Positions 2,566 through 32,978 of a DNA stretch of 64,000 nucleotides are shown here, in pieces. The notes under the pieces are model-generated. The model was not told where the DNA came from and ran no database searches. It saw only the letters and a list, made by a program, of their open reading frames with translations. The position numbers and the translations under genes are program-made. The stretch comes from Alphaproteobacteria bacterium. Its GTDB lineage: Bacteria; Pseudomonadota; Alphaproteobacteria; UBA828. How positions within the stretch are numbered: position 1 is the stretch's first letter; every line of letters begins with the position of its first letter. The DNA lies in NCBI GenBank assembly GCA_965214705.1, contig CBDCCI010000002.1, positions 480,001-544,000 on the forward strand, in the 5' to 3' direction.

Positions 2566-3791
2566 CCTCAGACCTCACGCCCGGCAAGATCGCGATCGGG
2601 ATCGGGCGCAGCGTAGATCCGTTCGCCGATCACGAACTCGTGCAAGTGGGGGAGCAACGGCAACGGTCGGACGTGGTGAAACATGTCCGAGGGAGGGAGT
2701 GCTCCGCGGCCGTTTTCTCCAGAGCCAGACGCCATCGGTGATGTCTGTGCGCGCACCGTGCATTGCCCGGCCTTCGCCACCGTGCAGGGCATGATCCGCC
2801 TCGCCGACGACCATGGTGGCGATCGCCTCGACGCACTCTGCGCCGAGGCCCTCGACCTCAACCGCCTCGCCTCGGGCTTCCTCAGGGAGCGCGTCAAGAA
2901 CGGCGGCGAGCCCGATCCGCCGCGCCCCGAGCACGACGAGACCATCCCCAGCCACGGCAACATCCGCGGTGGCGACTACTACGGCAACAACGGAGGAGCG
3001 ACACCATGACGCTGCGACAACCCAACATCGACCGCCTGCTGCAGCTCGGTCTCAGCGGCATGGCCGAGGCCCTGGAGGAACAGCGCGACATCGCCGACGT
3101 CGACCAGCTCGGCTTCAACGACCGCCTCGCCCTGATGATCGAGCGCGAGGCCGAACACCGCGATCACAAAAGCTATCTCGGCCACCTGCGCCAAGCCCAG
3201 TTGCGCATCCGCGCCGACATTCAGGACGTCGACTGCCGCGCGGGGCGCGGCATCGCCCGGACCACGCTCACCCAGCTCGCCGCCGGCGACTGGATCCGCC
3301 AGGGCCACAATCTGATTCTGGGTGGGCCAACCGGGTCGGGAAAGACGTTCGTCGCTTGCGCGCTCGCCCACCAGGCCTGCCGCCAGCACCAGTCCGTCCT
3401 CTATCGCCGCGTGCCTGAGCTGGTCGCCGCCCTCATCCGCGCCCGCGACAAGGGCACGCTCGAGCGCCTGATGGGCCGCCTGGGCAGGGTCTCCCTGCTG
3501 GTGCTCGACGACTGGGGCCTCCAGGGCTTCTCCGCCGAGGGCCGGCGCGACCTGCTGGAGATCGTCGAGCAGCGCCACGGACGCAAGTCCATCCTCATCG
3601 CCAGCCAGATCCCCGTAGACGGCTGGCCGAAGGTGATCGGCGAGCCGACGATCGCGGACGCGGTCCTCGACCGCATCGTCCACAGATACCATGAGCCGGT
3701 TGCTTCGACTCGACTTCGAGTGGTTCGAGGCACCCGGAGAGAAGGCCCCCACCTTCTCTCCGGGAGGAACCGTCAACAACGGAGTGGACGA

Positions 3792-4988
3792 ATGTCAGAC
3801 TATCCAAGCACGACCGCGCTGACAGGCGCGAGGCATAGCACGGTTTACGTTGCTGTGGAGATCAGTCTCAAATCGTGGATTGTGGGAATGCATTGCCCGG
3901 ACGCTTCGGGCGGCTGCATCAGCATCCACAAGCTGGCCACTGCGGACACGGCCGGACTGGTTGAGCTTGCTGGGTCGGTGCGGGAGCGGGTGGCGAGGGA
4001 GCTGGGTGCGCGTCCGCGAGTGATGCTGACCTACGAGGCGGGCTACGAGGGGTTCTGGCTGGCCCGGGACATCGAGCGCCGAGACGCGGAGATCGAAATC
4101 TTCATGAACGATCCGGCGAGCCTGCAGGTGAACCGCCGCGCCAAGAGGAAGAAGACCGATCGGATCGACACGAGGAAGATGCTTCGCGCCCTGAAGGCGT
4201 GGGACCAGGGCGATTCGGAGGCCATGTCCTGGGTACGAGTGCCGGCAGTGGACCGGGAGGACGACAAGCGCCTGCTGCGCGAGAGGGAGACGTTGATCGT
4301 TGAGCGCACGCGCCTCAACAATCGGATCAGGGGGCTGTTGATGCTGCACGGCATCTTCGACCTGGCGCCGCGCCGAGCGGACTTCCTGGATCGGCTTGCA
4401 GCCGCGCGGACCGGCTATGGAGCGCCTTTGCCGCCGCGGGCGCGGGCCGAGATCGAGAGGGCGGTCGCGGTGCTTCGTCTGGTTGAGGCTCATATCGACA
4501 CGATCGAGGCCGAGAAGAAGGCCCTGCTGAAGGCCGGCCGGAAAGCCGTGGACGCGCCGAACCGGGACGGGACGGCGGTGATCGCGGCGCTCACGCGGAT
4601 CCACGGCATCGGCCTCAACGATGCGACGCTGCTGGCCGGCGAGGTGTTTTATCGGGACTTCCGCAATCGGCGCGAGCTGGGCAGTTGGGCCGGCTTGACA
4701 TCGGTACCGTGGGCGAGCGGCGGGGTCGATCACGATCTCGGCATCAGCAAGGCCGGCCCCTCGCACATCAGGAAGCACATGATCCAGATGTCGTGGCGCT
4801 GGTTGAAGCTGCAACCGGAAAGCGGGATCACGAAGTGGTTCCATGCCTATGTCGCCAGAGCTGCCAATGGTGGCAGGGACAAGCGCGCCAGGAAGCGCGC
4901 GATCGTCGGCGTCGCGCGCAAGCTTCTGATCGCGCTGTGGCGCTACGCCACCCAGGGGCTGGTGCCGGAGGGCGCCATCGTCTCGTGA
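3792..4988 (+). CDS. IS110-family transposase/recombinase
   Basis: YEAGYEG, KKTDRID, FRNRRELGSWAGL, SGG...GISKAG, ARKL motifs. Confidence 0.93.
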   Translation: MSDYPSTTALTGARHSTVYVAVEISLKSWIVGMHCPDASGGCISIHKLATADTAGLVELAGSVRERVARELGARPRVMLTYEAGYEGFWLARDIERRDAEIEIFMNDPASLQVNRRAKRKKTDRIDTRKMLRALKAWDQGDSEAMSWVRVPAVDREDDKRLLRERETLIVERTRLNNRIRGLLMLHGIFDLAPRRADFLDRLAAARTGYGAPLPPRARAEIERAVAVLRLVEAHIDTIEAEKKALLKAGRKAVDAPNRDGTAVIAALTRIHGIGLNDATLLAGEVFYRDFRNRRELGSWAGLTSVPWASGGVDHDLGISKAGPSHIRKHMIQMSWRWLKLQPESGITKWFHAYVARAANGGRDKRARKRAIVGVARKLLIALWRYATQGLVPEGAIVS

Positions 4989-5330
4989 CGGCGTTGGCCG
5001 AACGAGAAGGAGACAACACGAGGTTCCGACGCGGTCGGACGCGACCGCGGAGGATGCCGGGCAAGGCGTGTGACCGAATAGGCGTTGGGTTGCCGAATGG
5101 CACCGTTCCATAGATGGGTCCCGCCTCCCGGAACGTCGCGACCGCCTGGATGCGGTATTGGGGTCGCGGAGCCGGCGAGAGCCGGAGCTCCGAACCGGAT
5201 AAGAGTTGAGCAGCGTGACGAGCCGCTGCGTGGAAAAGACGTTCTGCCTGGACATCGGCCGCGGATGCGAGTGGGGAGATCACGAATGCCATTCACGTAA
5301 ATGAAGTCGGGCCTTGCAGAGAGAGCTCAT
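4989..5330 (+). ncRNA. Putative bridge/seekRNA region of the IS110
   Basis: Structured 3' NCR; ATAGGCGT (5078-5085) is the reverse complement of the right target flank. Confidence 0.65.
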
Positions 5331-5835
5331 AAGACGCCTATCGCATCGAGCTCAAGGGAGAGTCCCAGCGCAAGCGCAACAAGCCCCCGCCACTCGACGG
5401 CGGCGGCAACAGAGCCCCGGCCTGACGGCCGGGGTCCATGGGCGCCTGCGGCGCCTTCCGGGTTGCGAGGCCGGTGGCGCGCGGCGGCATGCTGTGTGTG
5501 AGAGCTTGCCGCCGCGCCCCGCCGGCCGTTTGCATGCCCAAGAGGCCTCGCATACGCTCGGCTCGGGCTGGCCAAAGGCCAGCCCCCCGACATCACCAAG
5601 GGGAGGGTCACACCGCCAAATCCGGGAGAGACAGCGCGCTGGCGCGCGCCTGCGCCACGGTCAAGTGTTGCCAGAATCCCGGTCAAATAAAATCAGAATC
5701 GGCGGTCAAATAAACCGGAATCCGCAGGAGAATGCCGTTCGCTCTTCATGGCGTCTGATCCTGCCCGCCGGGGCTTGCTCTGGCGCCGGATTTCATGCAA
5801 TGGCTTGGAGCGGCAGAAGCGAAGGTAGGTTCGAA

Positions 5836-6450
5836 ATGGAAAAGGTGTTCATCTATTGGGACAATTCGAACATCTTCATCAGCGCTCAAGAAGTCGCGAG
5901 CGAACGGGAAGGGGTAGAGACCCGTTACAGAGTGCGCGTCCAATTCCGAAACCTGCTGGAACTGGCGCGGGCCGGCCGCGATGTCGAGCGGGCGATCGCC
6001 GTCGGTTCCATTCCCCCGGAGTTGCGGCACGTCTGGAACCGATTGGAAAATGAAGGTGTCACCGTTCAGTTGCTGGAACGCGGCGCGATGGAGCGCCGAG
6101 AGCAGGGCGTCGACCAAACCCTGCAAACTGCGATGCTGCGCGATGCGTTCGACTACAACGGATCGCCGGGAATCGCGGTCATGCTCACCGGCGACGGCAG
6201 CGGCTTTCATGACGGCGTCGGTTTTCATGCCGACCTGGAGCGCATGCACAGTCGAGGATGGCGCATCGAAGTGCTGTCGTGGCGACATAGCTGCAACCGC
6301 CGGATGCGGGAATGGGCGGAGCAGAATGGCCGGTTTGTCGCCCTGGATGACTATTACGAGAGCGTAACCTTCCTTGAACCGCCGCCGCCGGGCCAGCCCA
6401 TCGCCGACCCGCGCCATGCGGTTCCGGTCAACCTGGACGACCGCTTGTGA
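5836..6450 (+). CDS. NYN (PIN-like) domain nuclease
   Basis: VFIYWDNSNIF, EQGVDQTL, MLTGDG, FVALDDY motifs. Confidence 0.85.
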   Translation: MEKVFIYWDNSNIFISAQEVASEREGVETRYRVRVQFRNLLELARAGRDVERAIAVGSIPPELRHVWNRLENEGVTVQLLERGAMERREQGVDQTLQTAMLRDAFDYNGSPGIAVMLTGDGSGFHDGVGFHADLERMHSRGWRIEVLSWRHSCNRRMREWAEQNGRFVALDDYYESVTFLEPPPPGQPIADPRHAVPVNLDDRL

Positions 6451-6574
6451 TCCGGCCCTGCGTCTGCATGGCTCGCGCCGCGCGTTCGCGTCGGAGTTGG
6501 TGACGGGCGGCGAAACCGCGGGTGCTGAAGGGTGTCGGGGTTGATGAGCCGCCGGTTCGAGACCCAGCCGGCGG

Positions 6575-6760
6575 CGAAGCGGAGTTTGACCCTCCCGCCA
6601 ACGACCTCGACATAGCGCTCGAGCGTCTTCAGCGATGGCACATGACCGGGGCCACGGTGTGCTGGTTCATCTTCATCCCTTTGGCCACTTCGCTCTGGGT
6701 CAACCCAGCCGTGACACGCGCCTTGATGAGTTCCCGACGCCGGCTTGAACTCGGGTTTCG
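6575..6760 (-). pseudogene. Frameshifted XRE-family HTH regulator fragment
   Basis: ELIKARVTAGLTQSEVAKGM and PSLKTLERYVEVVG lie in different frames. Confidence 0.6.
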
Positions 6761-6836
6761 GAGCGTCGGTGCCGGTGGCATCATATTGCCGGAACCGGAC
6801 GGAGCGGCCGTCCGCCTGACGATAAAGGCCCATGGT

Positions 6837-7478
6837 ATGAACGGGACGCTCGATGTTTTCTTTCGCGTCATTGGCGCGGAAGCGCCTGCCGACCATGGCT
6901 ACGCGCTGTTCGGCGCGATCTCCCGCATTCTGGAGACGGAGGACGACCGCTGGATGCACGGCAACCCGCATGTCGGCCTCCACACTATCCGCGGCGCGAA
7001 TCTGGGGAACGGCCGGCGCTTGATTGGCTCCGGCGCGCGCTTCGGCCTGCGCCTGCCGTCAGAGCTGTTGCCCCGTTCTCTGAAGTTGGCCGGAAAATGC
7101 ATCGACCTTGATGGTTGCAAGCTGCGCGTCGGCGTCGGCGAGATCCGAGCCTTGGTCCCAGCGGCAACGCTGCACTGCCGAATAGCGACCACCAAGAACG
7201 GTGACGATCCCGCTCGCTTTGACGGCCAGATCGCCCGGCAGCGCGCCTCTCTCGGCATTCGCGGCAATGTCATGCGCGCGCCGGAGAGTGCCGCGCGAAG
7301 CGACAGACGCGACCCGAGTCGCCGCATCCTCCGCGTGAAGGGCAAGCGGATCGTCGGTCATGCCCTCCTCGCGACGGAACTGACGACCGAGGAGTCTATC
7401 CTGCTTCAGAAACGCGGCCTCGGTGGCCGGCGGCGGATGGGATGCGGGGTGTTCGTGCCGGTGACTGGGAGGCCTTGA
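6837..7478 (+). CDS. cas6: Cas6, Myxan subtype
   Basis: PADHGYALFGAIS N-terminus; C-terminal G-rich loop GLGGRRRMGCGVF. Confidence 0.92.
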   Translation: MNGTLDVFFRVIGAEAPADHGYALFGAISRILETEDDRWMHGNPHVGLHTIRGANLGNGRRLIGSGARFGLRLPSELLPRSLKLAGKCIDLDGCKLRVGVGEIRALVPAATLHCRIATTKNGDDPARFDGQIARQRASLGIRGNVMRAPESAARSDRRDPSRRILRVKGKRIVGHALLATELTTEESILLQKRGLGGRRRMGCGVFVPVTGRP

Positions 7479-7533
7479 CAATTGAGGCATCGGGCTGTAG
7501 TTGGTGGCTCGTCCATGCCACTAACACTATAAG
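7475..7533 (+). promoter_or_regulatory. Probable promoter region containing the mini-array target site (7513-7527) and ATA PAM
   Basis: TTGACA at 7475-7480 and TATAAG at 7528-7533 (not one canonical pair); 14/15 match to the mini-array spacer. Confidence 0.55.
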
Positions 7534-7541
7534 GGAACAAG

Positions 7542-7730
7542 ATGATGCTTGGACGCAGTTGGGTACAGGTGTCTCACCGGAAATGTGTCTATGAGGAGTG
7601 GTGCGAGGAGACGGTGAGGGAGTGGTCCGAGCAACCAGAATGGCGCGGGCCGCAGAGGCCAGTCAGGAAGGCCGACGCCCTGTTAACCGTAAGACCACGA
7701 GCACCTCATGATCTTGAGACTGAGGAGTGA
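7542..7730 (+). CDS. Small 62-aa ORF, candidate CRISPR-repressed toxin
   Basis: AAGGGA SD-like site before ATGATG; lies between the target site and pseudo-repeat 1; no recognisable family. Confidence 0.35.
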   Translation: MMLGRSWVQVSHRKCVYEEWCEETVREWSEQPEWRGPQRPVRKADALLTVRPRAPHDLETEE

Positions 7731-7820
7731 TGCCGAAAGGCGTTTTGCACGTGTTCGTGGCATGGGTGGTCTGATGTTGCCTGACTCCTTCAACCAGTGA
7801 TGCCGAAAGGCGTTCGCGAG
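7715..7820 (+). CRISPR. Degenerate mini-array (2 pseudo-repeats, about 34-nt spacer), CreA/CreR-like
   Basis: Two copies of AGTGATGCCGAAAGGCGTT versus array core AGTGATGCCGAGAGGCGTT, 70 bp apart. Confidence 0.85.
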
Positions 7821-7821
7821 C

Positions 7822-10242
7822 ATGAATCATGTGCTACTCGCCAAATCGCAGCGCGAAGAGGACGGCCAGATTGTCGAGCCGGTATCCTTACTGGATCACT
7901 CAAGGGCCGTCCTCGCAGCAGCCCATGCGATTCTCGACGAGATTGAAGACTTCCTTCCCCCGGAAATAGCCAAGCCCGATCTACGGAAACTGGTTCTCGC
8001 CGGAGCGGTCCTGCACGACATCGGCAAGGCCAACAACATGTTTCAGGGAATGCTTCGCCCGAAACGGGCGGAGTTCCCGGAGATCCGATGGCCCCAGAGG
8101 CAGCCGCTCCGCCATGAAGGGCTTAGCGCCCTGATTGTCGCAGGGTATATCGAGGAAGCCCGCGAGTTCTCCGACCATTTGGTCGATGAGTTCTTTGATG
8201 ATTGGAACGATCCGCACCAGGCCCTGTGGATGCTGGCTTGGCTGGTGGGTGGCCATCACCTCCAGATGCATCACGCTGAGGAAGCCGCGGTTGCCATGGT
8301 TCGCATCAGCGGCATTCCCGACGGAGCAATCCGGTTTCATGGCAATCTCTTGGGAGAAAGATGGCAACGAGAATTCGCCGACGTGTTGGGTGAGGCGCCT
8401 TGCGTTCCTGATTTTGTCGTTTCCACGGACATCGGCGACAGCGACGGACACCACGCCGCCCTCATGGATTATTTCGCCTGGGAGTCGGAAGAAAGAGCCG
8501 AATCTCTGTCAGCTGAGGAGTTGCGCTTGCTGGCGTTTGCGAAGGCGATTCTTATTGCCGCCGACGTCGCTGGCTCCGCGTTGTGGGACACGAAAGGCGG
8601 CAAGATGACCCGCTTGGAAAGCGGCGTAAGAATGTCGTTGCAGAACCATTGCCGGCGAGAAGATCTGACGGAAATTATGCGCACCCGTCTTGATGTGGGA
8701 GAAGACGGCGGCTACGAGCCCAAACTTTATCCCTTTCAGCGTCGAGTCCGCAACGCGCGTCAATCCCGTGTCGTTCTGGAGGCGGCTTGTGGCGGCGGCA
8801 AAACGCTCGCAGCCTATGGATGGGCGCTACAGCACGCGGAACAAGGACGCAAGTTGATCATCTGCTACCCGACCACGGGAACGGCGGCGGCGGGTTTCGA
8901 GGACTACCTGCTGATTCAGGGCGAGCTGGAACGCAAGCTGATGACGGGCCGCGCCGATGTTGACGTTCGCCGAATGCTGGCCAACGAGCCCGAGCCGGTC
9001 GACGGCAAAGAACGTAGTCTGCGTCACCCCAACCGCGACGAAGACCTGGAAAACCTATTGAAACAAGAGTCCCTGCAAGCCTGGGGCCAGCAAGCCATCG
9101 CCGCGACCGCTGATTTCGTCCTGGGATTGATGCAGAACCATCGCCGGGGACTCTTCAGCTTTCCGGCCATCATCAAGAGCGCAATCGTTTTCGACGAAGT
9201 CCACAGCTACGACACCAAGATGTTCGGCTCACTGGTTCGATTCTTGCGTGTATTCCCGAATGTCCCCGCGTTGCTGATGACAGCGTCGCTGCAACCGGCG
9301 CGGCGTGAAGCGTTGGATTCAGCTGGTATTGAATACGCACTTGTTCTCGGCGACGATGATAAGGAAAGAACTGGAAGGTATCGCCTGGAATGGTGCGAAA
9401 AGGATCCCCTTGTGTCGGTCGACGAAGTCCAAATCACGGCCCCGGACAAATGCTGGTCCGACGTTCAAAACGCGCTTGACAAAGGTGGTAAAGTGCTTTG
9501 GGTGTGTAACACTGTCGCGGACGCCGTACGCGTTTATGACGAGGCGGAGAAGCTGGACGGCCATGCGAAACGCATCCTGTTTCACAGCCGCTTCTGCTAT
9601 CGCCACCGCGTGGACCGTCAGAACGAGATACTGACAACCTTCAACGAAGACAAGATGCCGTGTCTGGCGGTCACGACTCAGGTGTGCGAGATGTCGCTGG
9701 ATATCAGTGCGGATATGCTGGTGACCGCCCTTTCGCCGTTTCCCGCTCTCGTGCAGCGGATGGGCCGGCTGAACCGCCGTTTGACAAACCCGGACGGCGC
9801 CCTTTGCTTGGTCTATGACTATGACGGCATGGATGGCCGGCCTTATCGTCGGGCGGATCTGAAGACGGCCCGCGATGCCGTCAGGATCCTCGCCGAAGCG
9901 CGCGGGCAGTTGTCCCAGCGCGATCTCAAGAACGAGCTGGACGGGATGCCCGAAGCGGTCGACGACATTAAGTTCCATTCCGCTTGGCTGGACGGCGGCT
10001 GGGAAAGCAGACAGGCGGCCCTGCGAGAGGGCGACGCGACCGTGCCGGTCTTGTTGGCGCAGCATGAGAGCGATATACGCGAGCGGATAAGGGAAGTCGG
10101 CAAGAACGCGGCCGTCAAAGCCGTCAAGGAGTGGTTGGTTCCGATTCTGCACGGAGCCAGGGAATTCCGCGTGGTCGGCCGAATAGGCGGCTATCCGGTC
10201 GTGTACGGCGTCGAATACGACGAAGAAAAAGGCGCGCGATGA
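7822..10242 (+). CDS. cas3: Cas3 HD nuclease-helicase
   Basis: LHDIGKAN, AACGGGKT, FDEVH, TQVCEMSLDI, QRMGRLNR. Confidence 0.96.
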   Translation: MNHVLLAKSQREEDGQIVEPVSLLDHSRAVLAAAHAILDEIEDFLPPEIAKPDLRKLVLAGAVLHDIGKANNMFQGMLRPKRAEFPEIRWPQRQPLRHEGLSALIVAGYIEEAREFSDHLVDEFFDDWNDPHQALWMLAWLVGGHHLQMHHAEEAAVAMVRISGIPDGAIRFHGNLLGERWQREFADVLGEAPCVPDFVVSTDIGDSDGHHAALMDYFAWESEERAESLSAEELRLLAFAKAILIAADVAGSALWDTKGGKMTRLESGVRMSLQNHCRREDLTEIMRTRLDVGEDGGYEPKLYPFQRRVRNARQSRVVLEAACGGGKTLAAYGWALQHAEQGRKLIICYPTTGTAAAGFEDYLLIQGELERKLMTGRADVDVRRMLANEPEPVDGKERSLRHPNRDEDLENLLKQESLQAWGQQAIAATADFVLGLMQNHRRGLFSFPAIIKSAIVFDEVHSYDTKMFGSLVRFLRVFPNVPALLMTASLQPARREALDSAGIEYALVLGDDDKERTGRYRLEWCEKDPLVSVDEVQITAPDKCWSDVQNALDKGGKVLWVCNTVADAVRVYDEAEKLDGHAKRILFHSRFCYRHRVDRQNEILTTFNEDKMPCLAVTTQVCEMSLDISADMLVTALSPFPALVQRMGRLNRRLTNPDGALCLVYDYDGMDGRPYRRADLKTARDAVRILAEARGQLSQRDLKNELDGMPEAVDDIKFHSAWLDGGWESRQAALREGDATVPVLLAQHESDIRERIREVGKNAAVKAVKEWLVPILHGAREFRVVGRIGGYPVVYGVEYDEEKGAR

Positions 10243-12149
10243 CCGGCCAAGTCAAGAAGGCGAAAAGCACCGGAACGATCTTCCGCCTGAACGAGCCCGG
10301 TATGGGTGAGCATGAACGCGCGGGCCTGGCGGGTTTGTGCTTGAGCCTGACTGCGGCAGCGGCGTGGGAAAATCAGCGGAAGGCGTGGCCGTTGCCCGGG
10401 GCCGTGGCAAAGAAGCTCGACGCGTTGTATGAAACGATAAGCAATTCGGACGCACTGGGCTTTCCCTTCTCGGAAAACGGTAGCGGCGTCCGTTTGGAGT
10501 GGCCGGCGGGCGGTGAAAAGGCCGCGTTGGAGGCTGCCGTCAAATGGGCGTGGCAGGTCCATGACGGCGTGCTGTTCCTCCCCGGTGTCCATCGAAAGCG
10601 CGAGCATCTGGACTGCTACTATTTGCGGTTGCATATCCATGACGGCCTGTTGGGAACCTTTTTCCAGTTCCCCCGAACGATCAAGAAAGTGAAAGATCCT
10701 GAGCGGAGGGTCGTGCGCTTCGACGAGGAGAAGACCTTCTCGGTATCTTATCGCCGTATCACGTCCCACACTTTGCCCCAGCATAAGGCCGTCCCCAAGA
10801 TGGGGGTTTGCGGCGATGCTCTGGTCCCGACCATGTCTTCGTGGATTTACCCCGGGTCGGAGCCACGTTTCAACAACAACATCCCACCGAAACTCCAGCG
10901 GGAGACCGGATGGCGCGGTCCGGCGCGGTTCGCCTATCTGATGTTGTTTGCGCCCATCGCCTGTCATTACATTAGGTTGCCGCGCTCGAATGCTCAAAAT
11001 TGGTCATACATGGTTCCAAGCGTCGAGAACCTGCCGAAGTTTCAGCGCGGATTCCTGCGCCGGAATATTGTCAATGCCGGGAATTGGCCATTCCACGGCG
11101 AGGTCGCGGGGCTGGAGGACGCCGCGTTGCGCTATGCGACGCGGGACAAGACGCACGGGCAGTCCGTGACGGTCGTCATGGGAAAAGCCGACTTCTACCA
11201 TCCGCAGCAGAAGACGCGCAAAAATCTGTGGCGAGATATCGCCGTGGCCGATGACATGCGAAGGGCATTTCGACGCTATGGCATTTTCAACCGCGTATTT
11301 CCGGCGAGCAACACGGTCCGGCCGACCCGCGAGGTCAAGTGCGAGGAAAGCGACGAGAAGGGTAACCATTTCGTTGTCCTGCCGAATTGCCGTGAGCGGA
11401 TCACCGCGAACATATTGCGCAACGATCCATGGTATGCCGATCTGGCCTATATTCCTTTCTGGCAGCGCGACCGCATCGAGAACGAGTGCCAGAATGCTCG
11501 GAAACGCGGTCTGCGGGCGGTAGGACTGAACGTGCCGTGGCGAAGTGACGATCAAGAGAAGGAAACTATCTCTCCAGCGAGGCTATGGTTCCTGAAATTG
11601 TACCACTTTGAGAGGAAGCACCTGATGTCACTTGCGGACGAAAGCGAAGTCTGGGATGACCCGCTGGAGAAGCACTTGCTCGACGCCTTTCGCGAAGCGT
11701 TCCGGCGGCTCTTGAATCGTGAGTACGCAGCCGTCCGGAAAAGGAGCGGAAGCCGCGACCTGCACAAACGCTGGGACAATACGGCGGACAAGTGGCACCG
11801 CCGCCTCCTCCATGCCAAGACCCGGCTCTTGCTGTCCACAGCGGTACACGAGTTGCTCGTCGAGGCGTCGAGAAGCCCGTCGTATTTCGTGGAGAAGGAT
11901 GGCACGCGGGTGGAACGCCCTCCTGGGCCGGCCTTTCTGCTTTCGAGAAAGGGCGGCGGCGAGGAGTCCCGTCGTGACCGCAACGATAGATTCCACGCCG
12001 AATTCCGCCGAATGGTAAATCATCGGAGCGACTGGAAGAAGATTCGCGATCTGGCGCTTCTGGCGCTGACGACATTTACGGACTCGCGTCTCCGACAGCC
12101 CAGAAACGACCAATCCTCCAGAGACCACGAAGAGGAAATCGACCAGTGA
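10239..12149 (+). CDS. cas8: Cas8 large subunit, Cmx8/Myxan type
   Basis: HERAGLAGL N-terminal motif, LFAPIAC, C-terminal RDLALLAL; sits between cas3 and cas7. Confidence 0.85.
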   Translation: MTGQVKKAKSTGTIFRLNEPGMGEHERAGLAGLCLSLTAAAAWENQRKAWPLPGAVAKKLDALYETISNSDALGFPFSENGSGVRLEWPAGGEKAALEAAVKWAWQVHDGVLFLPGVHRKREHLDCYYLRLHIHDGLLGTFFQFPRTIKKVKDPERRVVRFDEEKTFSVSYRRITSHTLPQHKAVPKMGVCGDALVPTMSSWIYPGSEPRFNNNIPPKLQRETGWRGPARFAYLMLFAPIACHYIRLPRSNAQNWSYMVPSVENLPKFQRGFLRRNIVNAGNWPFHGEVAGLEDAALRYATRDKTHGQSVTVVMGKADFYHPQQKTRKNLWRDIAVADDMRRAFRRYGIFNRVFPASNTVRPTREVKCEESDEKGNHFVVLPNCRERITANILRNDPWYADLAYIPFWQRDRIENECQNARKRGLRAVGLNVPWRSDDQEKETISPARLWFLKLYHFERKHLMSLADESEVWDDPLEKHLLDAFREAFRRLLNREYAAVRKRSGSRDLHKRWDNTADKWHRRLLHAKTRLLLSTAVHELLVEASRSPSYFVEKDGTRVERPPGPAFLLSRKGGGEESRRDRNDRFHAEFRRMVNHRSDWKKIRDLALLALTTFTDSRLRQPRNDQSSRDHEEEIDQ

Positions 12150-13090
12150 CCACGCACATCTTCGGTATGGCGCTCACGCACGAGGGTACCTTCTCCAACA
12201 ACCGGGGCGAAAACGAGGGCAACACCAACACGCTTCAGAAGGTCATACGCAACGGCGACATCTTCTCGACCGTTTCGGCGGAGGCGATTCGCTACGCCCT
12301 GCGCGACGGCTGGCAGCGTGATGGCGAAACCCTGAACCGGAGGACGCTCGACCATCGAGCAGTCGAATACAATGATCGGGACTTCAGTCCCGATCATTGG
12401 CCGTCCCGTCTGGATGACGATGTTCTCGGATTCATGCACGCACGGGAAGACACCGTGAGCCGCCGCGCGCCGCTGGAAGTGACCCGCGCCATTTCCGTCA
12501 CGCCATGGACCGGCGAGGTCATGCACAACTTTGCTGCTCCCGGCTCCAATCCGATAGAGAGACGCGATGACCCGAACCCAATCCCGTATTCGGTGGAAGT
12601 CCATCATACCCGCTATCAGTTCGGATTCGCCCTGACGCCGGATTCTCTGGGACGGGCAAGCAATGACGTCAACAGCGTACACAACGACGACGAGAAGATC
12701 AGGCGTGTTTCTGCAACACTGAACGGCCTCGCCGGCCTGCGGCGGGTCGGCGGCGCCCATGCCCGTTATTTCGCTGACTATTCGCCGGAAATCCTCATCC
12801 TTCGCGTTACCGCCGACCCCGCGCCGCGCATGCTATATTGCTTCGAGCAATCTGAGGGAAGCGGCTCCATCGGCGTCCGCACTCTTGAAAAGAAGCTCGG
12901 CAAAGATATCGCCCCCGAGGAACTGATCATCGGCGCGGCGATCGACATCTCCGAGTTGCGCGACTTGAAGTCGGACGATAGCGGACGCATCCTCGACGAC
13001 GGGGGCCCGTGGAAGGGAGCGACCTTGGCCGGCGGCGTGAAAGACGCAGTCGCAAGGTGCGTGGACCGCTTGAGCGGCCGGGTGTCGTGA
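12146..13090 (+). CDS. cas7: Cas7 (DevR-type)
   Basis: NNRGENEGNTNTLQK, TVSAEAIRYALR, DDDVLGFM. Confidence 0.93.
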   Translation: MTTHIFGMALTHEGTFSNNRGENEGNTNTLQKVIRNGDIFSTVSAEAIRYALRDGWQRDGETLNRRTLDHRAVEYNDRDFSPDHWPSRLDDDVLGFMHAREDTVSRRAPLEVTRAISVTPWTGEVMHNFAAPGSNPIERRDDPNPIPYSVEVHHTRYQFGFALTPDSLGRASNDVNSVHNDDEKIRRVSATLNGLAGLRRVGGAHARYFADYSPEILILRVTADPAPRMLYCFEQSEGSGSIGVRTLEKKLGKDIAPEELIIGAAIDISELRDLKSDDSGRILDDGGPWKGATLAGGVKDAVARCVDRLSGRVS

Positions 13091-13773
13091 CAGGCACGGT
13101 CCCCGACTCGAGCGATATCCTCACCCTGCGAGTGGATGTTCCGATGGCGGGACTGCGTCCTATGTGGGCGCGGGAGTATCAGGAGACTTATCCCGCGCCG
13201 CCGCCCTCCACAGTCTACGGCATGTTGCTGTCTCTCGTCGGCCTCGAACGCGAGGACAAAGACAGACACTCCGGTTTGCGAATCGTGCTCGCGCTCGCGG
13301 AACACACGGCGGAGTCACTCTGGCGAAGGCAGGAGAAAGGACGGGTGTTCCGCAAATTCCGCCGCGTGGCTCAGAGCAAGAGGGACGCCGATCCCCTTGC
13401 CGACCGCCGTCCCGATTACCAGGAACTATTGCTCGGTCTGGAATTCTGGACATGGGTGGACGACTCACAGACGAAATGTCCGCTGTCCGATAAAATCCGC
13501 ATGGCGCTCGATCCGGAACGACGCAGCGAAGTTGTCCGACACGGCGCGCTATGCCTTGGCGAGTCCTCGCATATGGTCAACGAAATTTCGCTGGATCGTC
13601 CACACGGGAAAGGACGCTTTGTGGCCCCGTGCGAAAACGGATTTCTTTCAATGCCGGTCTGGAGCAACTACGGTGCAACCGGTCGGCCGACATTGGTCAA
13701 CTTTGAAATCCGAGAACCGGAAGAATTGCCGAATGATCCGCCCGACGACTGCTGGATCATCATCGCTCCCTGA
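13087..13773 (+). CDS. cas5: Cas5 (DevS-type)
   Basis: AREYQETYPAPPPSTVYGMLLSLVG, RPDYQELL, LCLGESSH. Confidence 0.93.
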   Translation: MTGTVPDSSDILTLRVDVPMAGLRPMWAREYQETYPAPPPSTVYGMLLSLVGLEREDKDRHSGLRIVLALAEHTAESLWRRQEKGRVFRKFRRVAQSKRDADPLADRRPDYQELLLGLEFWTWVDDSQTKCPLSDKIRMALDPERRSEVVRHGALCLGESSHMVNEISLDRPHGKGRFVAPCENGFLSMPVWSNYGATGRPTLVNFEIREPEELPNDPPDDCWIIIAP

Positions 13774-15458
13774 TGACAGATGCCTCGACAGACGGTGCCC
13801 CGGCTACCCCGCCCCCCGAAGACGGAGACAACTCGCTCATCCGTGTCATGGCGTTGCACGCCTTGGCCTATTGCGAGCGGCTGTTCTATCTGGAAGAGGT
13901 CGAAGAACTTCGCGTTGCCGACCACCGCGTTCACGCCGGGCGCACACTGCACCAAGCGGAGGTGGATGGGAAGCGCGAGTGGCGGAGCTTGGAGCTTGCC
14001 AGCGACAACTGGGGCATTCGCGGCAAGGTGGATTTCGCCCGCTACCGCGATGGCCAACTTGTCGCCATAGAACACAAGAAGGGCCGCTCCAGGGGCGACG
14101 AAGCTTGGGAGACCGACAAGCTTCAAGTCACGGCCTATGCCGTTCTCCTGTCCGAACACTTCGAGAGACCGGTGGCGGAGGGGCGCGTGCGGTACCACGC
14201 CAGCAACAAGACGGTGCGCGTGGCCGTAGACGACGCGGCCCGCGAGCGTCTGCGGCGCGCCGTCGCTCGAGCGCGGAAGCTGTCGCTTTCGCTGGAGCGT
14301 CCGCCGGTGACGGACAATGAGAACCTGTGCGCCAAGTGCTCGCTCGCGCCGGTGTGTTTGCCCGAGGAGGCCCGCCTGGCCGCCGCGGTTGGCGAGGCCG
14401 ACGAACCGGCTTGTGCCGCGAAGCCACGCCGCCTGTTCCCGAAAGACGATGCGCGCCGCGTTCTGCATGTCGTGAATCCGGACGCGCAGGTGAGGCGTGC
14501 CGGCCTGCAATTCGTGGTGCGCGATTCCGATGGCGAGGAGAAGAAGTTTCCCGGCATGGATGTCGGCGCCGTGATCCTGCACGGCAACGCACAGATCACA
14601 TCGCAGGCAATCCGTTTCGCCGTCGCCAACGACATCGCCGTGCACTGGATCAGTGGCGGCGGCTGGTATGTAGGCGGCGTCGCGCCGCCCGCCGGTACGC
14701 ACCGGCGCCTGCGGCAATACCGGGCATTGCAGGACGAGGATTTTAGCCTGCGTCTCGCGCGTCGCTTGGCAGAAGCCAAGATGGAAAACCAAGTACGGTT
14801 CATCGTCCGTCAGTCGCGCGTGCGTGGCGTGCGCGCGAAAGCGGAGGCATTCTTGGCCGTCATGCGCGGCCAACTCCGGCAGGTTGAGCGATGCGCCGAC
14901 GCGGATGCCCTGCGCGGCCACGAGGGGATCGCGGCCCGTAACTACTTTTCGGCGCTCGCCCTACTTCTCGATGCCCGGGAGAAGACGATGGTGTTCTCCG
15001 GGCGAACCCGCCGACCGCCGCGCGACGGCTTCAACGCGGCCCTGTCCTTCGGCTACGGCCTGTTGTACCGCGAGGTCATGGCCGCGATCATCGCAGTGGG
15101 ACTGGACTCCGCGGTGGGATTCTTTCACGCGCCACGCACCGCGGCTCATCCGTTGGCGCTGGATCTGATGGAACTGTTTCGTACCACCCTGTGGGACATG
15201 CCGCTGGCGGCGTCGGTCAACCGGCGACAATGGACCGCTGAACATCTCGCAGTGAACAAGAAGAGGGTTTGGCTTTCCGACGCGGGCAAGCGCTTGGCGA
15301 TCAGCCTGTTCGAGCAACGCAAGCAGGAGACCTGGAAGCACCCAGTGCTCGATTATTCCCTGAGCTATGCGCGGACGATAGAACTGGAGGCGCGGCTTCT
15401 GGAAAAGGAATGGAGCGGCGAGGAAGGGCTGTTCGCCCGCATGCGCCTGCGCGGATGA
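13773..15458 (+). CDS. cas1: Cas4-Cas1 fusion
   Basis: YCERLFYL and CAKCSLAPVC Cas4 cysteines; GHEGIAARNYF, FNAALSFGY, LALDLMELFR Cas1 motifs. Confidence 0.95.
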   Translation: MTDASTDGAPATPPPEDGDNSLIRVMALHALAYCERLFYLEEVEELRVADHRVHAGRTLHQAEVDGKREWRSLELASDNWGIRGKVDFARYRDGQLVAIEHKKGRSRGDEAWETDKLQVTAYAVLLSEHFERPVAEGRVRYHASNKTVRVAVDDAARERLRRAVARARKLSLSLERPPVTDNENLCAKCSLAPVCLPEEARLAAAVGEADEPACAAKPRRLFPKDDARRVLHVVNPDAQVRRAGLQFVVRDSDGEEKKFPGMDVGAVILHGNAQITSQAIRFAVANDIAVHWISGGGWYVGGVAPPAGTHRRLRQYRALQDEDFSLRLARRLAEAKMENQVRFIVRQSRVRGVRAKAEAFLAVMRGQLRQVERCADADALRGHEGIAARNYFSALALLLDAREKTMVFSGRTRRPPRDGFNAALSFGYGLLYREVMAAIIAVGLDSAVGFFHAPRTAAHPLALDLMELFRTTLWDMPLAASVNRRQWTAEHLAVNKKRVWLSDAGKRLAISLFEQRKQETWKHPVLDYSLSYARTIELEARLLEKEWSGEEGLFARMRLRG

Positions 15459-15739
15459 GTGGCCGGCACTGGTATATTTTCAGCTACGACATCCGGGACC
15501 CAAAACGGTGGCGCCTAGTGTATAAGATCGTCAACGGTTATGGGGAGCGGTTGCAGTACTCCCTGTTTCGATGCCACCTGACGCGGACGCAGATGGAACA
15601 AGCCCGGCACGAATTGGAAAAGGTGCTGGGGGAAGAAGACGACCTGCTCGTGATTCGGCTGTCGCCGCGCTCTCAGGTCATAGAGCGGACCAACGGAAAA
15701 CAGTGGGCCGATCCACCGCCGCGCTTCGATATCGTGTAG
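15455..15739 (+). CDS. cas2: Cas2
   Basis: YIFSYDIRDPKRW...YGERLQYSLF. Confidence 0.95.
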   Translation: MSGRHWYIFSYDIRDPKRWRLVYKIVNGYGERLQYSLFRCHLTRTQMEQARHELEKVLGEEDDLLVIRLSPRSQVIERTNGKQWADPPPRFDIV

Positions 15740-15987: not shown

Positions 15988-17392
15988 GTGAAATTGTCAG
16001 TGATGCCGAGAGGCGTTGAGCACCCGATACCGATACCGTCCGCGTGCTCGCGGAGTGGGTGAAATTGTCAGTGATGCCGAGAGGCGTTGAGCACAGTGTG
16101 AGTGAGACGATCCACCCAGTCAATCGAGTGGGTGAAATTGTCAGTGATGCCGAGAGGCGTTGAGCACAAACAGGGTGTGCACGATATTTCCCTCGCCGAC
16201 TAGTGAAATTGTCAGTGATGCCGAGAGGCGTTGAGCACAGAAAGACCCCAAAGAGAGAGATCAAGCACTGCGGTGAAATTGTCAGTGATGCCGAGAGGCG
16301 TTGAGCACATGCAATTCGACAACCGCATGCGCATCCTCATGCACCGTGAAATTGTCAGTGATGCCGAGAGGCGTTGAGCACCACACAAACCAAAAGTTGC
16401 GTGTCATCCGAATTCGGTGAAATTGTCAGTGATGCCGAGAGGCGTTGAGCACCTCAGACGAGAGTGCACCCAGAACTACAAGATCAGAGTGAAATTGTCA
16501 GTGATGCCGAGAGGCGTTGAGCACACCGCCGAGGAATCGACCCTCCAGCCGCTCCGCGAGTGTGAAATTGTCAGTGATGCCGAGAGGCGTTGAGCACTGC
16601 GACGATAGCGGCACTGGGCAATCCTGCCCGTGCAGTGAAATTGTCAGTGATGCCGAGAGGCGTTGAGCACCTCGCGAATCTCGCCAAGGTATACGACCTG
16701 GACGAAGGTGAAATTGTCAGTGATGCCGAGAGGCGTTGAGCACGTGATGGTGCGCGGAGTTGAAGCCTGATTTCGTCGCGTGAAATTGTCAGTGATGCCG
16801 AGAGGCGTTGAGCACTACAACCGGGTCCTCCTGCCGAACGCGCGGTTCAAGCGAAATTGTCAGTGATGCCGAGAGGCGTTGAGCACCGCAATGCCCGGGC
16901 AGGAACGTAACCGCCACGCACGGGCGAAATTGTCAGTGATGCCGAGAGGCGTTGAGCACTAGATGTGGTTGGCGGTCGCCGACCGGTGGAGGGTGAGCGA
17001 AATTGTCAGTGATGCCGAGAGGCGTTGAGCACATTGTCGTCACGTCGCCTGGCGCGGCTCGCAACGGCGAAATTGTCAGTGATGCCGAGAGGCGTTGAGC
17101 ACATGAGCAGGTGGTCGAGCGCATCCGCCGCCATGTCTGCGAAATTGTCAGTGATGCCGAGAGGCGTTGAGCACCCGCTGCACGCTCCCGGTGGTGACGT
17201 CGGTGGGGTCGAACGGCGAAATTGTCAGTGATGCCGAGAGGCGTTGAGCACACCGAGACGCTCGAGATTAGCCACCGCGCCACCGGGCGAAATTGTCAGT
17301 GATGCCGAGAGGCGTTGAGCACATCGTGGCGATCAAGAGCCGCGAGGTTTGGGAAATGGGCGAAATTGTCAGTGATGCCGAGAGGCGTTGAG
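15988..17392 (+). CRISPR. CRISPR array, 20 repeats (36 bp, last truncated) and 19 spacers of 34-41 bp
   Basis: Repeat GTGAAATTGTCAGTGATGCCGAGAGGCGTTGAGCAC; repeats 13-20 begin GCG. Confidence 0.98.
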
Positions 17393-19387
17393 GCGCAGGG
17401 CTGGTGTAGCGCAGCGCGAAGCTGGGCGGCCCTGTACGATTGCCTCCCCGGCGAACTCGAAGAAACGATGGACGGACGCGATCTCGCCGCTCACGCCGAG
17501 GAGGCGGGATCGACGGACGCGTTGCAAGCCCAGATCGAAGAGGCTGACGCGACGAGTTGGCTGGACGAGCTGCACGGCTTCCTGTCGGCTCATGGCTTCG
17601 GCGACGCGCTGCGAGGTCTGAAGATCGTCCCGGACCAGAACGGCAGGTTCGGCTCGCTCCCACAACTGCATCGCGACCGAGACATCCCCGGTGAGTTGAA
17701 GGAGATCGCGCAACTCGTCGGTTGGGATCTTCGTGCACAGTTGCGTGATACGCATTTCTGTACGCTTGCCGACGAACCCGGAGCGGGAGACATCGACAGC
17801 GACTTGGTCATCCCCAAGCTGATCGAGCGCCTACGCGAACGTATGGAGAGGCCGCTCGACGACGATTCGAGGAGCGCCAATGTCCGGCTCTTCGGCTGGC
17901 TCGCGACGCACGATCAGTGGCGCCATCTCGAAGGATTCCCGGCGTTCTCGGACGAGGACGATTCAAGCTCCCCTATCAAGCTACGACAGCACGAGGACGA
18001 CGCCTCCGAGCGGCCCCTCGCGCCTGTGTGGACATGGCCGGAACCACTCCGGCAATATGCGGACCTGTTCCCCCAACGCCGCATACTGGCTGACGACTTC
18101 GCTGTTCGACTTGACGATCCCTCTGTGTGGTCCGCTCTCGACGGGCGCGGCTTCCTCCGCACGAGTGTCCTGTATACCCGAGCGGTACAGTTCGACGAGT
18201 TTCTTCTGGACGAACCCCTGTCCGAAGCCGACGAGGGAGAGGTCGAGCACAAGGTAGACGGCACAGTCGAGGTCACGAACGTCGCCTTCCTGTCAACGAG
18301 GGATATCGGGATCCTGTCCAGGGTCCGTCAGAGCCGGAACCAGGGACAACTCTTCTGGGATTTTCTCACTCGATGGCTTGCAGTCGAGGATACCCAAGGA
18401 CTAGAGGCCCGAGAGTCGATGTGTGTATGTGGAGAGGCTCACCGCTACTACCCGGCCGCGTGGCTTGTTCCCGTCGCACACAACAAATGGGTTCCGCTGG
18501 AACGCAAGCGCACCGACCGGGCAACCGCACACTCCCTCGCGAACCTCATCCGCGACAGCCAATGGCCATCGGATCTCCTGCAGACGAGTCCGCAGGTCGT
18601 CGCTCTCCTGAAGGCGCTCCGGGTCGGCGTTCCCGAGCTCATCATGGAGCTCGTCACGACGGATGACGACGAACGGGCTGCTCTGGGCGAGACGCTCGCA
18701 CAGCTTCTGACGTCGGTCGGCAACGACTGGGACCGTTTGCAGGTGCTCGCCGAGGACATACAGGAGGACGGGGGACTGTTCGACCACCTTGAAGAACGCC
18801 GGCAGCGCCGTCGCATGGTGCGCGAGAATCAGAGGTTAGGTGCCCTCGTCGAGGATCTGGTCAGGGAGAGCCTGGAGGGCGAAGGCTTCGAGGTCCGTCG
18901 TACTGGCGTCGGCTCGGACTTCGCCATACAGCCCCGCCCGAATGCGGAAGACGAACAAATCCAGCTCGAATTGATCCGACGCGGCCGGACTTGGCTCGTC
19001 GAGATCAAGTCCGCCCGCGACCACAGCGTGAGGATGACGTCTGTCCAGGCACGAACCTCCGTCAAACACGAGCCAGACTACCTGCTTTGCGTGGTGCCGA
19101 TCAGCTCTGGCCCAGAGGATCCGGACATCGAAGCCGTTCGCAGAAGTATGCGTTTCGTCGATGGAATTGGTGCGCGCCTTGCAGACATCTGCACCGCTCT
19201 GGACCGTTTCGAGAGCTTGCGCGACAGCGTCACCGTCGAAGACCCGGCGGGCCTCCGCCTGGAACTCGATTCGGGCTCGCCGCGTATCCGCATCGAGAAC
19301 ACGGTGTGGGAGGCCGGATTCGGACTTGAGAACCTGCTCTCCCGGCTGACCGCACCGGACGACGGTGGCGGCAGTGCCGCCCCGTAA
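17393..19387 (+). pseudogene. 5'-truncated large protein with C-terminal PD-(D/E)xK (DUF3883-like) nuclease domain
   Basis: Open frame begins at the truncated last repeat; GFEVRRTGVGSDF...WLVEIKS motif. Confidence 0.6.
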
Positions 19388-31738: not shown

Positions 31739-32860
31739 TCAGCTCCCCAGCACGGCGCCGATGGTCTCGGCGGCCTGCCGCGTCATCGCGTCGGCCGGGT
31801 GGGCATACTTGAGGGTGGTCCCCGGATCGGCATGTCCGAGCAGTCTGCCGATGGCGAGCACGGTCTCGCCCTCGCGCAGCGCGATGCTGGCATGGGTATG
31901 GCGGAGATCGTGAAGACGGGCGTCGCCGAGGTCGGCCTCCGCCCGGATGCGCCACCAGAAGCTGTCCAGCCAGTGTTCGCAGTGCGCGCGTCCGGTATGG
32001 GGCGACGGAAAGACCCAACGGCCGGTCCGCGCGATGCCGTCGAGGACGGCCCGCGCGGGCGCGGACAGCCAGACGGTCCTCGGTCCGGTCTTGGAGTCGC
32101 GCAGGAACAGGCGGCCCTCGCGGTAGTCGGACCAGCGGAGCGTCAGGATCTCGCTCTTGCGGCATCCGGTCAAAAGGAGCAGGCGGATCGCGGCGACCTG
32201 CCCCGGACACGCCTCGGCGTGCGCCGACAGCACCCGGGAGAGCCTCCGGATCTCGTCGTCCGACAGGACCCGCTCGCGCCCCTTGCGGCGGTATCGCCGG
32301 ATGCCCCGGCAGGGGTTGGAGCCCTCGGGCCGCAGCCCCATCCGTTCCGCCCCCTTCATGACGACGGAGAGGATCGGCATGGACCTGTCGGCGGCGGCCG
32401 GCGTGGCGGCCAGCGAGGCGAACCAGTCGCGCACCGCGCGCCGGTCGATATCGGCGACATTGCGCCCCGCGAAATGGGGCATGATCTGCTTGCGGAGGTA
32501 GCCCCGGTTGACAGCGAGCGTGCGCGGCTTCCATGTCCGCTCGTACTGCCGGAATACGGTCTCCGCGACGGCCTCGAAGAGCGCCTCCTCGGGACGGGGC
32601 GGCGCGGTGTCGCCCCGCCCGATCGCGGCCAGCATCCCGCTCGCGCGCGAGCGCGCCTCGATCACGCCGACCGCCTCGGCGTCGCCTATGATCTTCCACA
32701 CTCGTTTGCCGCGATGCTGGCAGTGGACGAAGAAGCGCTTGCGGCCCGAGGGCAGCACCCGGACGCCGAAGCCCTTGAGCTTGCCGTCGCGGACGTCGTA
32801 GGCGGCCTTGCGGGGCTTCAGCGCCCCGATGCGGGCGTCGGTGAGGTTGGTTTTGGGCAT
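31739..32860 (-). CDS. Tyrosine recombinase A, second module
   Basis: Close homolog of 292-1416. Confidence 0.92.
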   Translation of the reverse strand: MPKTNLTDARIGALKPRKAAYDVRDGKLKGFGVRVLPSGRKRFFVHCQHRGKRVWKIIGDAEAVGVIEARSRASGMLAAIGRGDTAPPRPEEALFEAVAETVFRQYERTWKPRTLAVNRGYLRKQIMPHFAGRNVADIDRRAVRDWFASLAATPAAADRSMPILSVVMKGAERMGLRPEGSNPCRGIRRYRRKGRERVLSDDEIRRLSRVLSAHAEACPGQVAAIRLLLLTGCRKSEILTLRWSDYREGRLFLRDSKTGPRTVWLSAPARAVLDGIARTGRWVFPSPHTGRAHCEHWLDSFWWRIRAEADLGDARLHDLRHTHASIALREGETVLAIGRLLGHADPGTTLKYAHPADAMTRQAAETIGAVLGS

Positions 32861-32978
32861 ATCCTCTCTCCCGGTTGCGATTGCAGCCGGGGAACCGGGC
32901 GTTGACCGATCCGTCCGGATGCAACAAGATGCGGAAGAAAAAGCGACCCTTAGTCAGATAGTTAGCACCGCAGGTGCG
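32861..32978 (-). promoter_or_regulatory. Conserved left terminus of the tandem-recombinase element
   Basis: Reverse complement matches 174-291, beginning CGCACCTGCGGTGCTAACTATCTGAC. Confidence 0.85.

Follow-up and report, generated by a model that had tools for sequence, protein, structure and literature searches.

In a 64,000-nucleotide (nt) stretch of an alphaproteobacterial genome (assembly GCA_965214705.1, contig CBDCCI010000002.1, positions 480,001–544,000; hereafter the window), the 343 nt that separate the end of cas6 (7478) from the start of cas3 (7822) hold a two-repeat mini-array of CRISPR (short palindromic repeats that are clustered and regularly interspaced). This mini-CRISPR quite probably serves as a regulatory element of the CreR/CreA kind, which would guide the CRISPR-associated antiviral defense complex (Cascade) of the complete type I-B (Myxan) system in which it lies. 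Its two degenerate repeats, psiR1 and psiR2, enclose a spacer-like segment, psiS, whose first 15 nt match a site 224 nt upstream at every position except the sixth (Table 1); beyond position 15 the match decays, to 18/34 in total. On the side of the protospacer adjacent motif (PAM), the site is flanked by 5′-ATA-3′, and it lies ~10 nt downstream of the −10 hexamer of a putative promoter.

The mini-array is marked by an exact 19-nt direct repeat, AGTGATGCCGAAAGGCGTT, at 7726–7744 and 7796–7814 (spaced 70 nt), which is the core of the repeat of the canonical array, GTGAAATTGTCAGTGATGCCGAGAGGCGTTGAGCAC, 8 kb away. When a GARA loop is allowed, the 7.92-Mb genome has 22 copies of this core, of which 20 belong to the canonical array and two to the mini-array. 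psiR1, psiR2 and the canonical repeat are all predicted to adopt the same fold, a 6-bp stem with a tetraloop, which in psiR1 reads GATGCC-GAAA-GGCGTT (7729–7744) and is joined to the handle TTTTGCAC (7743–7750). Both mini-array repeats match the Rfam family CRISPR-DR33 weakly, below its gathering score (22 bits for psiR1), and 7 nt separate the end of the psiR2 stem from the start codon of cas3. A first-pass annotation of this DNA had placed two degenerate repeats with this hairpin between cas6 and cas3, at 7715–7750 and about 7785–7820, had read the match at 7527–7513 as 14/15 with a mismatch at position 6, an ATA flank and pairing that ends after position 15, and had called the system Myxan-type I-B. 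Repeats and match are as it described them, and the signature gene set and a 20-repeat array bear out the label.

The match between spacer and target is far from chance. When both strands of the whole genome were searched with spacer nt 1–15, only two sites other than the spacer itself matched at 14 or more positions; the second, at C1:729206, is mismatched at position 7, with CCG as its flank. By our own arithmetic, the chance of finding such a site within 300 nt is about 1.5 × 10−4 (2 × 1200/15.8 million). Requiring both the seed (positions 1–5 and 7–11) and a PAM (AYG or ATA) leaves three sites in the genome, the cis site among them, and ~0.7 others would be expected by chance. The other two, C1:3668246 (+ strand, flank ATG, 11-nt seed, inside a long open reading frame (ORF)) and C3:1644822 (− strand, flank ACG, 13/15), could be trans sites or chance matches. 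A 9-nt match to the spacer start on the + strand at 7449–7457, in the conserved GVFVP codons at the 3′ end of cas6, was considered as a second target and rejected, since its flank, GGG, is no PAM and the site has no counterpart in L009, one of two orthologous loci.

These orthologues, which were found by searching genome collections with Cas6 and Cas4-Cas1, are L009, an alphaproteobacterial metagenome-assembled genome (MAG) whose cas6 is 82% identical to that of the window, and L180, a Candidatus Versatilivorator MAG whose Cas4-Cas1 is 83% identical. The cassette has the same order in all three: a TTGAC[AC] box, the target, an ORF of 62–64 codons, psiR1-psiS-psiR2 and the cas3 start, which follows the psiR2 stem by 1–8 nt in L009 and L180. 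When the three are aligned, conservation is highest in the mini-array, whose hairpins, handle and seed exceed the flanks, and the DNA from target to guide is only about half identical; the handle of L180 is the same variant as that of psiR1, and the handle of L009 is canonical. The three spacers are homologous and have different seeds, and the best partner of the L009 spacer, and likewise of the L180 spacer, is the ATG-flanked site close by in its own locus. Out of 15 informative positions, the cognate pairs of the window, L009 and L180 score 13, 12 and 13, and non-cognate pairs 8–11. For each spacer and for each target the cognate score is the higher one, with a small margin for L009 (12 vs 11), and the differences between window and L009 at spacer positions 1 and 9 have their counterparts in the target.

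The position of the target is also shared. The ATG- or ATA-flanked matches of all three lie between a few and ~25 nt downstream of the −10 hexamer of a promoter-like TTGAC[AC] element at the cas6 end, which in L009 reads TTGACC-18-TATGAT. In L180 the site occupies the same place just past the −10 hexamer but on the opposite strand, an orientation that speaks against an inverted repeat that was simply inherited; its mismatches fall at positions 6, 10, 12, 13 and 18 within the first 22. No further orthologues were found in 60 related genomes or in plasmids, and metagenome contigs reached at most 65% Cas6 identity. A search for the handle-plus-seed pattern returned, from genome contigs, only the L009 genome and four unrelated matches in coding sequence and, from viral contigs, nothing.

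Mini-arrays of this design recur across the family. We scanned 328 sources, comprising 327 Myxan-type loci (some of which overlap in the same genomes) and the first 20 kb of the window, with a regular expression for a handle followed by a second hairpin at spacer distance, with at most two hairpins nearby. For each mini-array we chose, within 1 kb on either strand, the site that matched the spacer without a break over the greatest length counted from position 1, every sixth base being ignored and the flank unused. Among the 23 distinct mini-arrays so detected, 16 had a best site with a run of at least 6 and a flank of ATG (in 15 cases) or ATA (in one, the window); the 16 include two ties. The same criterion was reached by 58 of 2300 shuffled spacers and, in an earlier run with eight mini-arrays, by 7 of 648 foreign array spacers.

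When type I Cascade binds, every sixth base is flipped out. In the 16 pairs, positions 6, 12 and 18 match at background level (2, 3 and 3 of 16), positions 7, 8, 10 and 11 match in 13–16 pairs and positions 13–17 in 10–13, and background is reached from about position 25. Since the search gave positions 12 and 18 no weight, for or against, the 6-nt periodicity is an independent signature of Cascade-type recognition. TTGAC[AC] boxes adjoin the sites in the window, L009, L180, L022, L036 and L058. The target lies upstream of the guide, as in the window, in L185, L187, L247 and L022; in L158, L058, L036, L069 and L311 the guide comes first and the target stands between guide and cas6. A mini-array with an ATG-flanked match is also present in L266, from the Myxococcota. 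Separately, we note that the L270 spacer (− strand, at 7843) has a site 147 nt upstream with a 22-nt match that is broken only at positions 6, 12 and 18 and flanked by GTG instead of ATG. Genes for WYL-domain helix-turn-helix regulators (Pfam WYL, WCX and HTH_11) stand directly upstream of the cassettes in L158 (343–1311) and L022 (2399–3385), and the gene at this place in L187 (2169–3137) is likewise of WYL type by similar N-terminal sequence only; the window has no such gene.

Published PAMs of related systems fit these flanks. The Myxan Cascade of Synechocystis 6714 binds AYG best, with ATA "a close second" (PMC11096372), and RoCAST and PmcCAST are described as using ATG, with single changes tolerated (bioRxiv 2021.10.18.464778). 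The ATA flank in the window agrees with both, and with ATG at the 15 analogous sites, these being the PAMs of relatives and not of the window system itself. The first-pass annotation had invoked Cmx8/Cas8b3 systems with PAMs that start with AT; the PAM part holds in substance (AYG, ATA and ATG in relatives), and the Cmx8 part does not, the large subunit being of the Cas8a1/Cmx1/Csx13 family. It had also proposed spacer-target covariation in homologous loci as a check, and such covariation is present in the three orthologues, where cognate pairs score best. Its overall reading of the element as a CreA/CreR-like circuit is supported by these comparisons, namely the cognate sites of L009 and L180, the family scan (16/23, with its periodicity) and the PAMs of relatives.

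If the mini-array encodes a guide, how would it act? From transcription and processing of the mini-array to binding by Cascade and repression, the steps that follow are ones that we infer. The mini-array would be transcribed from the + strand, and Cas6 would cut both conserved hairpins to release an RNA resembling a CRISPR RNA (crRNA), consisting of the psiR1 handle, the 34-nt psiS and the psiR2 hairpin. Cascade (Cas8a1, Cas7, Cas5 and Cas6) would load this guide and recognise the ATA-flanked site, where the first 15 nt only would pair, with position 6 flipped out, and would stay there as a roadblock to RNA polymerase. Because pairing is limited to 15 nt, the R-loop would be partial, so that Cas3 would not be licensed and Cascade would remain bound. 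The presumed −35 hexamer, a perfect TTGACA, overlaps the cas6 stop codon and starts 38 nt upstream of the target; repression from there would cover the 62-codon ORF, the guide itself and cas3-cas8-cas7-cas5 onward, and the outcome would be negative feedback on the level of both effector and guide. A terminator scan detected no terminator between target and guide or before cas3, and since the guide is encoded downstream of the site that it targets, the loop would be expected to limit guide synthesis as well. A possible internal promoter ahead of the mini-array (TTAACC at 7683 and CATGAT at 7707, spaced by 18 nt; the corresponding position in L009 has TTGACC) could alter this part of the feedback.

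Several observations weigh against a regulatory role. At the target, ATA is not the optimal PAM, the putative −10 hexamer is weak (2/6 match to consensus), and a consensus promoter scan of the region reported no promoters. No RNA run was listed for 7300–8300, and four runs contained only identical contigs, with neither variants nor ends. In the guide, the psiR1 handle differs from the array handle, TTGAGCAC, at 2 of 8 nt. In the family scan, 7 of the 23 mini-arrays have no PAM-flanked match, and both the detection pattern and the rule for scoring every sixth base were written after the window had been seen. L009 provides the weakest pair, as its target pairs only at positions 1–5, 7–9, 11 and 14, and 31 sites in its genome match the first 15 nt of its spacer as well or better by simple count; the site is set apart only by its contiguous seed, flank and position. 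The 19 spacers of the canonical array gave no protospacers in their own genome beyond short chance matches, and among phage records they matched only a Microbacterium phage, over 31 nt with 90% identity (E 0.4), so that no PAM could be derived from them. Finally, in L010 and L176, both close relatives, cas6 and cas3 are separated by a short gap that lacks the cassette, which must therefore be dispensable. In L010, a stretch just ahead of the cas3 start (4645–4735) resembles the 3′ half of psiR2, which suggests that the cassette was lost there and not originally absent.

The alternative that survives best accepts the binding mechanism set out above and differs in the purpose of repression. The cassette could be an addiction or alarm module of the CreTA/CrePA type, in which the ORF, acting as a toxic or regulatory protein or as an RNA through its rare codons, is the selected target and the guide its antitoxin, so that the ORF would be set free if Cascade were lost or inhibited. 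Precedents exist in descriptions of CreP (bioRxiv 10.1101/2024.01.05.574328) and CreT (PMC10120712; bioRxiv 10.1101/2023.03.10.532045). In the window, the ORF sits directly behind the site of presumed repression, with a Shine-Dalgarno-like AAGGGA, and it is open in all three orthologues (62, 64 and 64 codons) with start and stop aligned in DNA that is only about half identical. Given that three diverged sequences would stay open over ~62 codons with a rough probability of ~6 × 10−4 at this base composition, we think from the comparison that the ORF is translated. A 77-codon ORF has the same position in the unrelated cassette of L185, and in L158, L058 and L069 the target is followed by small ORFs that are unrelated; L187 and L247, by contrast, are target-to-guide cassettes without one. 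The conserved ORF of the window would be a candidate cargo gene under Cascade control.

The ORF itself gives this alternative mixed support, and we regard an addiction role as unlikely. Its codons include many that are rare in the genome (near its end, for example, TTA, AGA, GTA and CCA), and BLASTP aligns its product with that of L180 (E 9e-7). Against this, BLASTP gave no alignment with the L009 product, tblastn found no relative in 160 Myxan-type loci, and neither a toxin nor any other family was found in Pfam, NCBIfam or the Atlas. Codon adaptation is scarcely higher than in the off-frames (−1.48 vs −1.57 and −1.70). The product is hydrophilic and charged, and its AlphaFold model is poor, with a mean predicted local distance difference test score of 63 (the other four models reach 37–40). 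Within the ORF we also noticed a 12-nt periodic tract, GAGGAGTGGTGC, in ~3 copies at 7593–7631, one copy of which is 12/13 identical to the start of psiR1; the tract may be debris of older repeats.

A more elaborate version of the regulatory circuit, which we offer as a speculation and think improbable, would make the cassette a three-part device composed of a Cascade-gated promoter, a fast-evolving small protein with its stop codon in the psiR1 stem and a guide that abuts the cas3 start, an arrangement shared by all three orthologues. Cas6 cleavage would then release an almost leaderless cas3-cas8-cas7-cas5 mRNA, psiR1 would fold and be processed in competition with ORF translation, and the output of Cas3 and effector would be set by Cas6 supply, Cascade occupancy and the small protein, which would be DevI-like. 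If this were so, a hidden guide and a young ORF at the head of a Myxan effector operon could explain DevTRS-DevI autoregulation in Myxococcus xanthus.

It might also be asked whether the pairing takes place between RNAs. The segments 7513–7527 and 7751–7765 are complementary at 14/15 on the same strand, both lie downstream of the putative promoter, and on one transcript they could pair in a long-range stem that governs ORF translation or guide processing, leaving Cascade without a role at the DNA. We disfavour this explanation and consider it very improbable. In L180, L036, L058, L069, L278, L318 and L266 site and spacer read in the same sense, which rules out pairing of the RNAs; the ATG or ATA flank in 16/23 and the loss of matches at positions 6, 12 and 18 would go unexplained; and 7715–7830 alone folds no more stably than shuffled sequences (z = −0.19). 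Least credible of all is a decayed array remnant with a chance match and no function, which would fit the degenerate repeats, the periodic tract as possible older debris and the fact that L010 and L176 manage without the cassette, and which is at odds with the genome-wide rarity of the match, the conservation of hairpins, handle and seed above their flanks in three genomes, the cognate pairing in the orthologues and the PAM and periodicity across the family.

The Cascade-guiding mini-CRISPR that we favour lies in a locus whose genes all read on the + strand, from cas6/cmx6 through cas3, cas8a1/cmx1, cas7, cas5/cmx5, a cas4-cas1 fusion and cas2 to a leader and the canonical array. The Myxan signature genes are all present, each above the curated NCBIfam cut-off (TIGR02807, TIGR03485/03486, TIGR02585, TIGR02586, TIGR03983 and TIGR01573). 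The true start of cas6 is probably later than annotated in Table 1, because homology to relatives begins near residue 100–110 (matches span residues ~100–318). The leader, upstream of the array, is AT-richer, the last repeat of the array is degenerate at its 3′ end, and, since the stem GAUGCC/GGCGUU requires G-U pairs that are present in the + strand reading only, the array is read on that strand, stem-loop first and then handle. The closest solved structures are those of PmcCAST Cas5 (8fcj_A, E 1.3e-24) for Cas5 and PmcCAST Cas8 (8fcj_I, E 1.2e-5) for Cas8; 8fcj is the Cascade of a I-B2 transposon from a Peltigera cyanobiont.

Table 1. Positions of the mini-CRISPR, its target and the surrounding CRISPR-Cas genes (numbering of the window)
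Feature	Position	Strand	Remarks
cas6 (Cmx6)	6522–7478	+	NCBIfam TIGR02807, E 1.7e-44; Pfam Cas6
Putative promoter	7475–7503	+	−35 TTGACA (7475–7480), 17 nt, −10 TAGTTG (7498–7503); predicted from hexamers
Partial protospacer	7513–7527	−	reads GTGTTAGTGGCATGG; 14/15 match to spacer nt 1–15
PAM-side flank 5′-ATA-3′	7528–7530	−	on the protospacer strand
62-codon ORF	7542–7730	+	preceded by AAGGGA (7531–7536); stop TGA inside psiR1 stem
psiR1, degenerate repeat	7715–7750	+	24/36 identity to canonical repeat
psiS, spacer-like guide segment	7751–7784	+	34 nt (array spacers 34–41 nt); homologous spacers in L009 and L180
psiR2, degenerate repeat	7785–7820	+	21/36 identity; stem-loop kept (7799–7814), handle not kept
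cas3 (HD nuclease and helicase)	7822–10242	+	TIGR01587, TIGR01596
cas8a1/cmx1	10131–12149	+	TIGR03485/03486
cas7 (Cst2/DevR)	12146–13090	+	TIGR02585
cas5/cmx5 (DevS)	13009–13773	+	TIGR02586
cas4-cas1 fusion, MYXAN type	13773–15458	+	TIGR03983
cas2	within 15269–15739	+	TIGR01573
Canonical array	15988–17395	+	20 repeats and 19 spacers; repeat GTGAAATTGTCAGTGATGCCGAGAGGCGTTGAGCAC

Other features of the window lie around these genes. Upstream of cas6, one long frame (2763–4988) matches both IS21 IstB and an IS110 transposase, and between this frame and cas6 is a gene for a 378-aa NYN-domain protein (5314–6450). A 690-aa ORF without an NCBIfam family begins inside the last array repeats (17315–19387). 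Farther downstream, 35-nt slices of ~31900–33200 match many sites on contigs C1 and C3 at 90–100% identity, and this segment is a multi-copy element, probably an insertion sequence; a 75-nt unit is perfectly duplicated in tandem at 43421–43570.

How does the cassette compare with systems already described? CreTA, reportedly the work of Li et al. in 2021, couples a Cascade-repressed RNA toxin to a CreA guide. In CrePA, the repressed toxin is described as a protein, CreP, again with a CreA guide (bioRxiv 10.1101/2024.01.05.574328). The window resembles both in having a CreA-like guide and a small gene under a presumably repressed promoter, between cas genes. It differs from both in that its ORF resembles no family, and from CreTA in that rare codons do not directly follow the start codon, as they do in the accounts of CreT.

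Another parallel is offered by the dev operon of Myxococcus xanthus, in which homologues of Cas8a1, Cas7 and Cas5 are described as repressing their own operon ~10-fold, and whose first gene, devI, is portrayed as a small, evolutionarily young ORF of 40 residues (PMC8616872; PMC8730458; bioRxiv 10.1101/2023.07.26.550624). One of these accounts describes the mechanism of autoregulation as unknown and states that Cas3 and Cas6 activity is not required (PMC8616872). As in DevTRS-DevI, the window has Myxan Cascade genes and a small ORF at the head of a putatively autorepressed operon, and by this analogy we treat the likeness of devI to the window ORF as a lead only. The M. xanthus dev locus was not among the best 80 matches of three protein scans. 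In 401 sampled Myxococcota, 12 genomes had a DevS match, and no two-hairpin mini-array was found by regular expression in eight of those regions; standalone degenerate repeats in two of the eight, L350 and L348, had no PAM-flanked target. Among nine Sorangium/Polyangium-type loci, the scan detected a mini-array only in L266. A literature search found no paper that joins Myxococcus and CreR.

The nearest known relatives are the CreR mini-CRISPRs, for which autorepression is reported to have been shown experimentally in types I-B, I-E and V-A (Liu et al., bioRxiv 10.1101/2023.03.10.532045), and in which, as CreR and CreA are described, an RNA that Cas6 has processed and Cascade has loaded binds a PAM-flanked partial target and obstructs RNA polymerase, with Cas3 not licensed (bioRxiv 10.1101/2023.03.10.532045; PMC10120712). 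Mini-arrays are reported in ~19% of bacterial I-B loci, enriched around cas6, where intergenic regions are long, and their targets are described as having a proper PAM and lying in promoter regions (Shmakov et al., PMC10120712). "Myxan" does not occur in the main text of that paper, whose supplementary lists may already include this locus or its relatives. Because mini-arrays with promoter targets and CreR autorepression have already been described, the locus joins a known kind of circuit, to which it adds unusual wiring. What it contributes beyond this is a strong in silico case that Myxan-type I-B systems, including relatives of the I-B transposon-associated Cascades, regulate themselves through crRNA-like guides, and a family scan that reads out the PAM (ATG, here ATA) and the 6-nt pairing periodicity of Cascade from genome sequence. 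For annotation, such cassettes would explain long intergenic regions between cas6 and cas3 or ahead of cas6, and a match of this kind should not be labelled as self-targeting immunity.

Like CreR, the window element is a degenerate two-repeat structure in a cas locus, with a PAM-side partial match to a putative cas promoter region and predicted autorepression (bioRxiv 10.1101/2023.03.10.532045), and like the CreR described from Haloarcula it follows cas6 directly. Unlike CreR, for which repression was demonstrated by experiment, it is known from sequence alone. I-B examples that Shmakov et al. give are located upstream of cas6, whose promoter they target (PMC10120712), whereas the mini-array in the window lies between cas6 and cas3. 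Moreover, in contrast to CreR, its guide lies downstream of the target, apparently inside the repressed transcript; an ORF at a conserved position separates target from guide; psiR2 extends to the start codon of cas3; and the first cas gene that would be repressed is cas3 and not cas8. A guide that is made within its own repressed transcript and is fused to the start of cas3 suggests feedback tighter than that of the CreR cases described so far.

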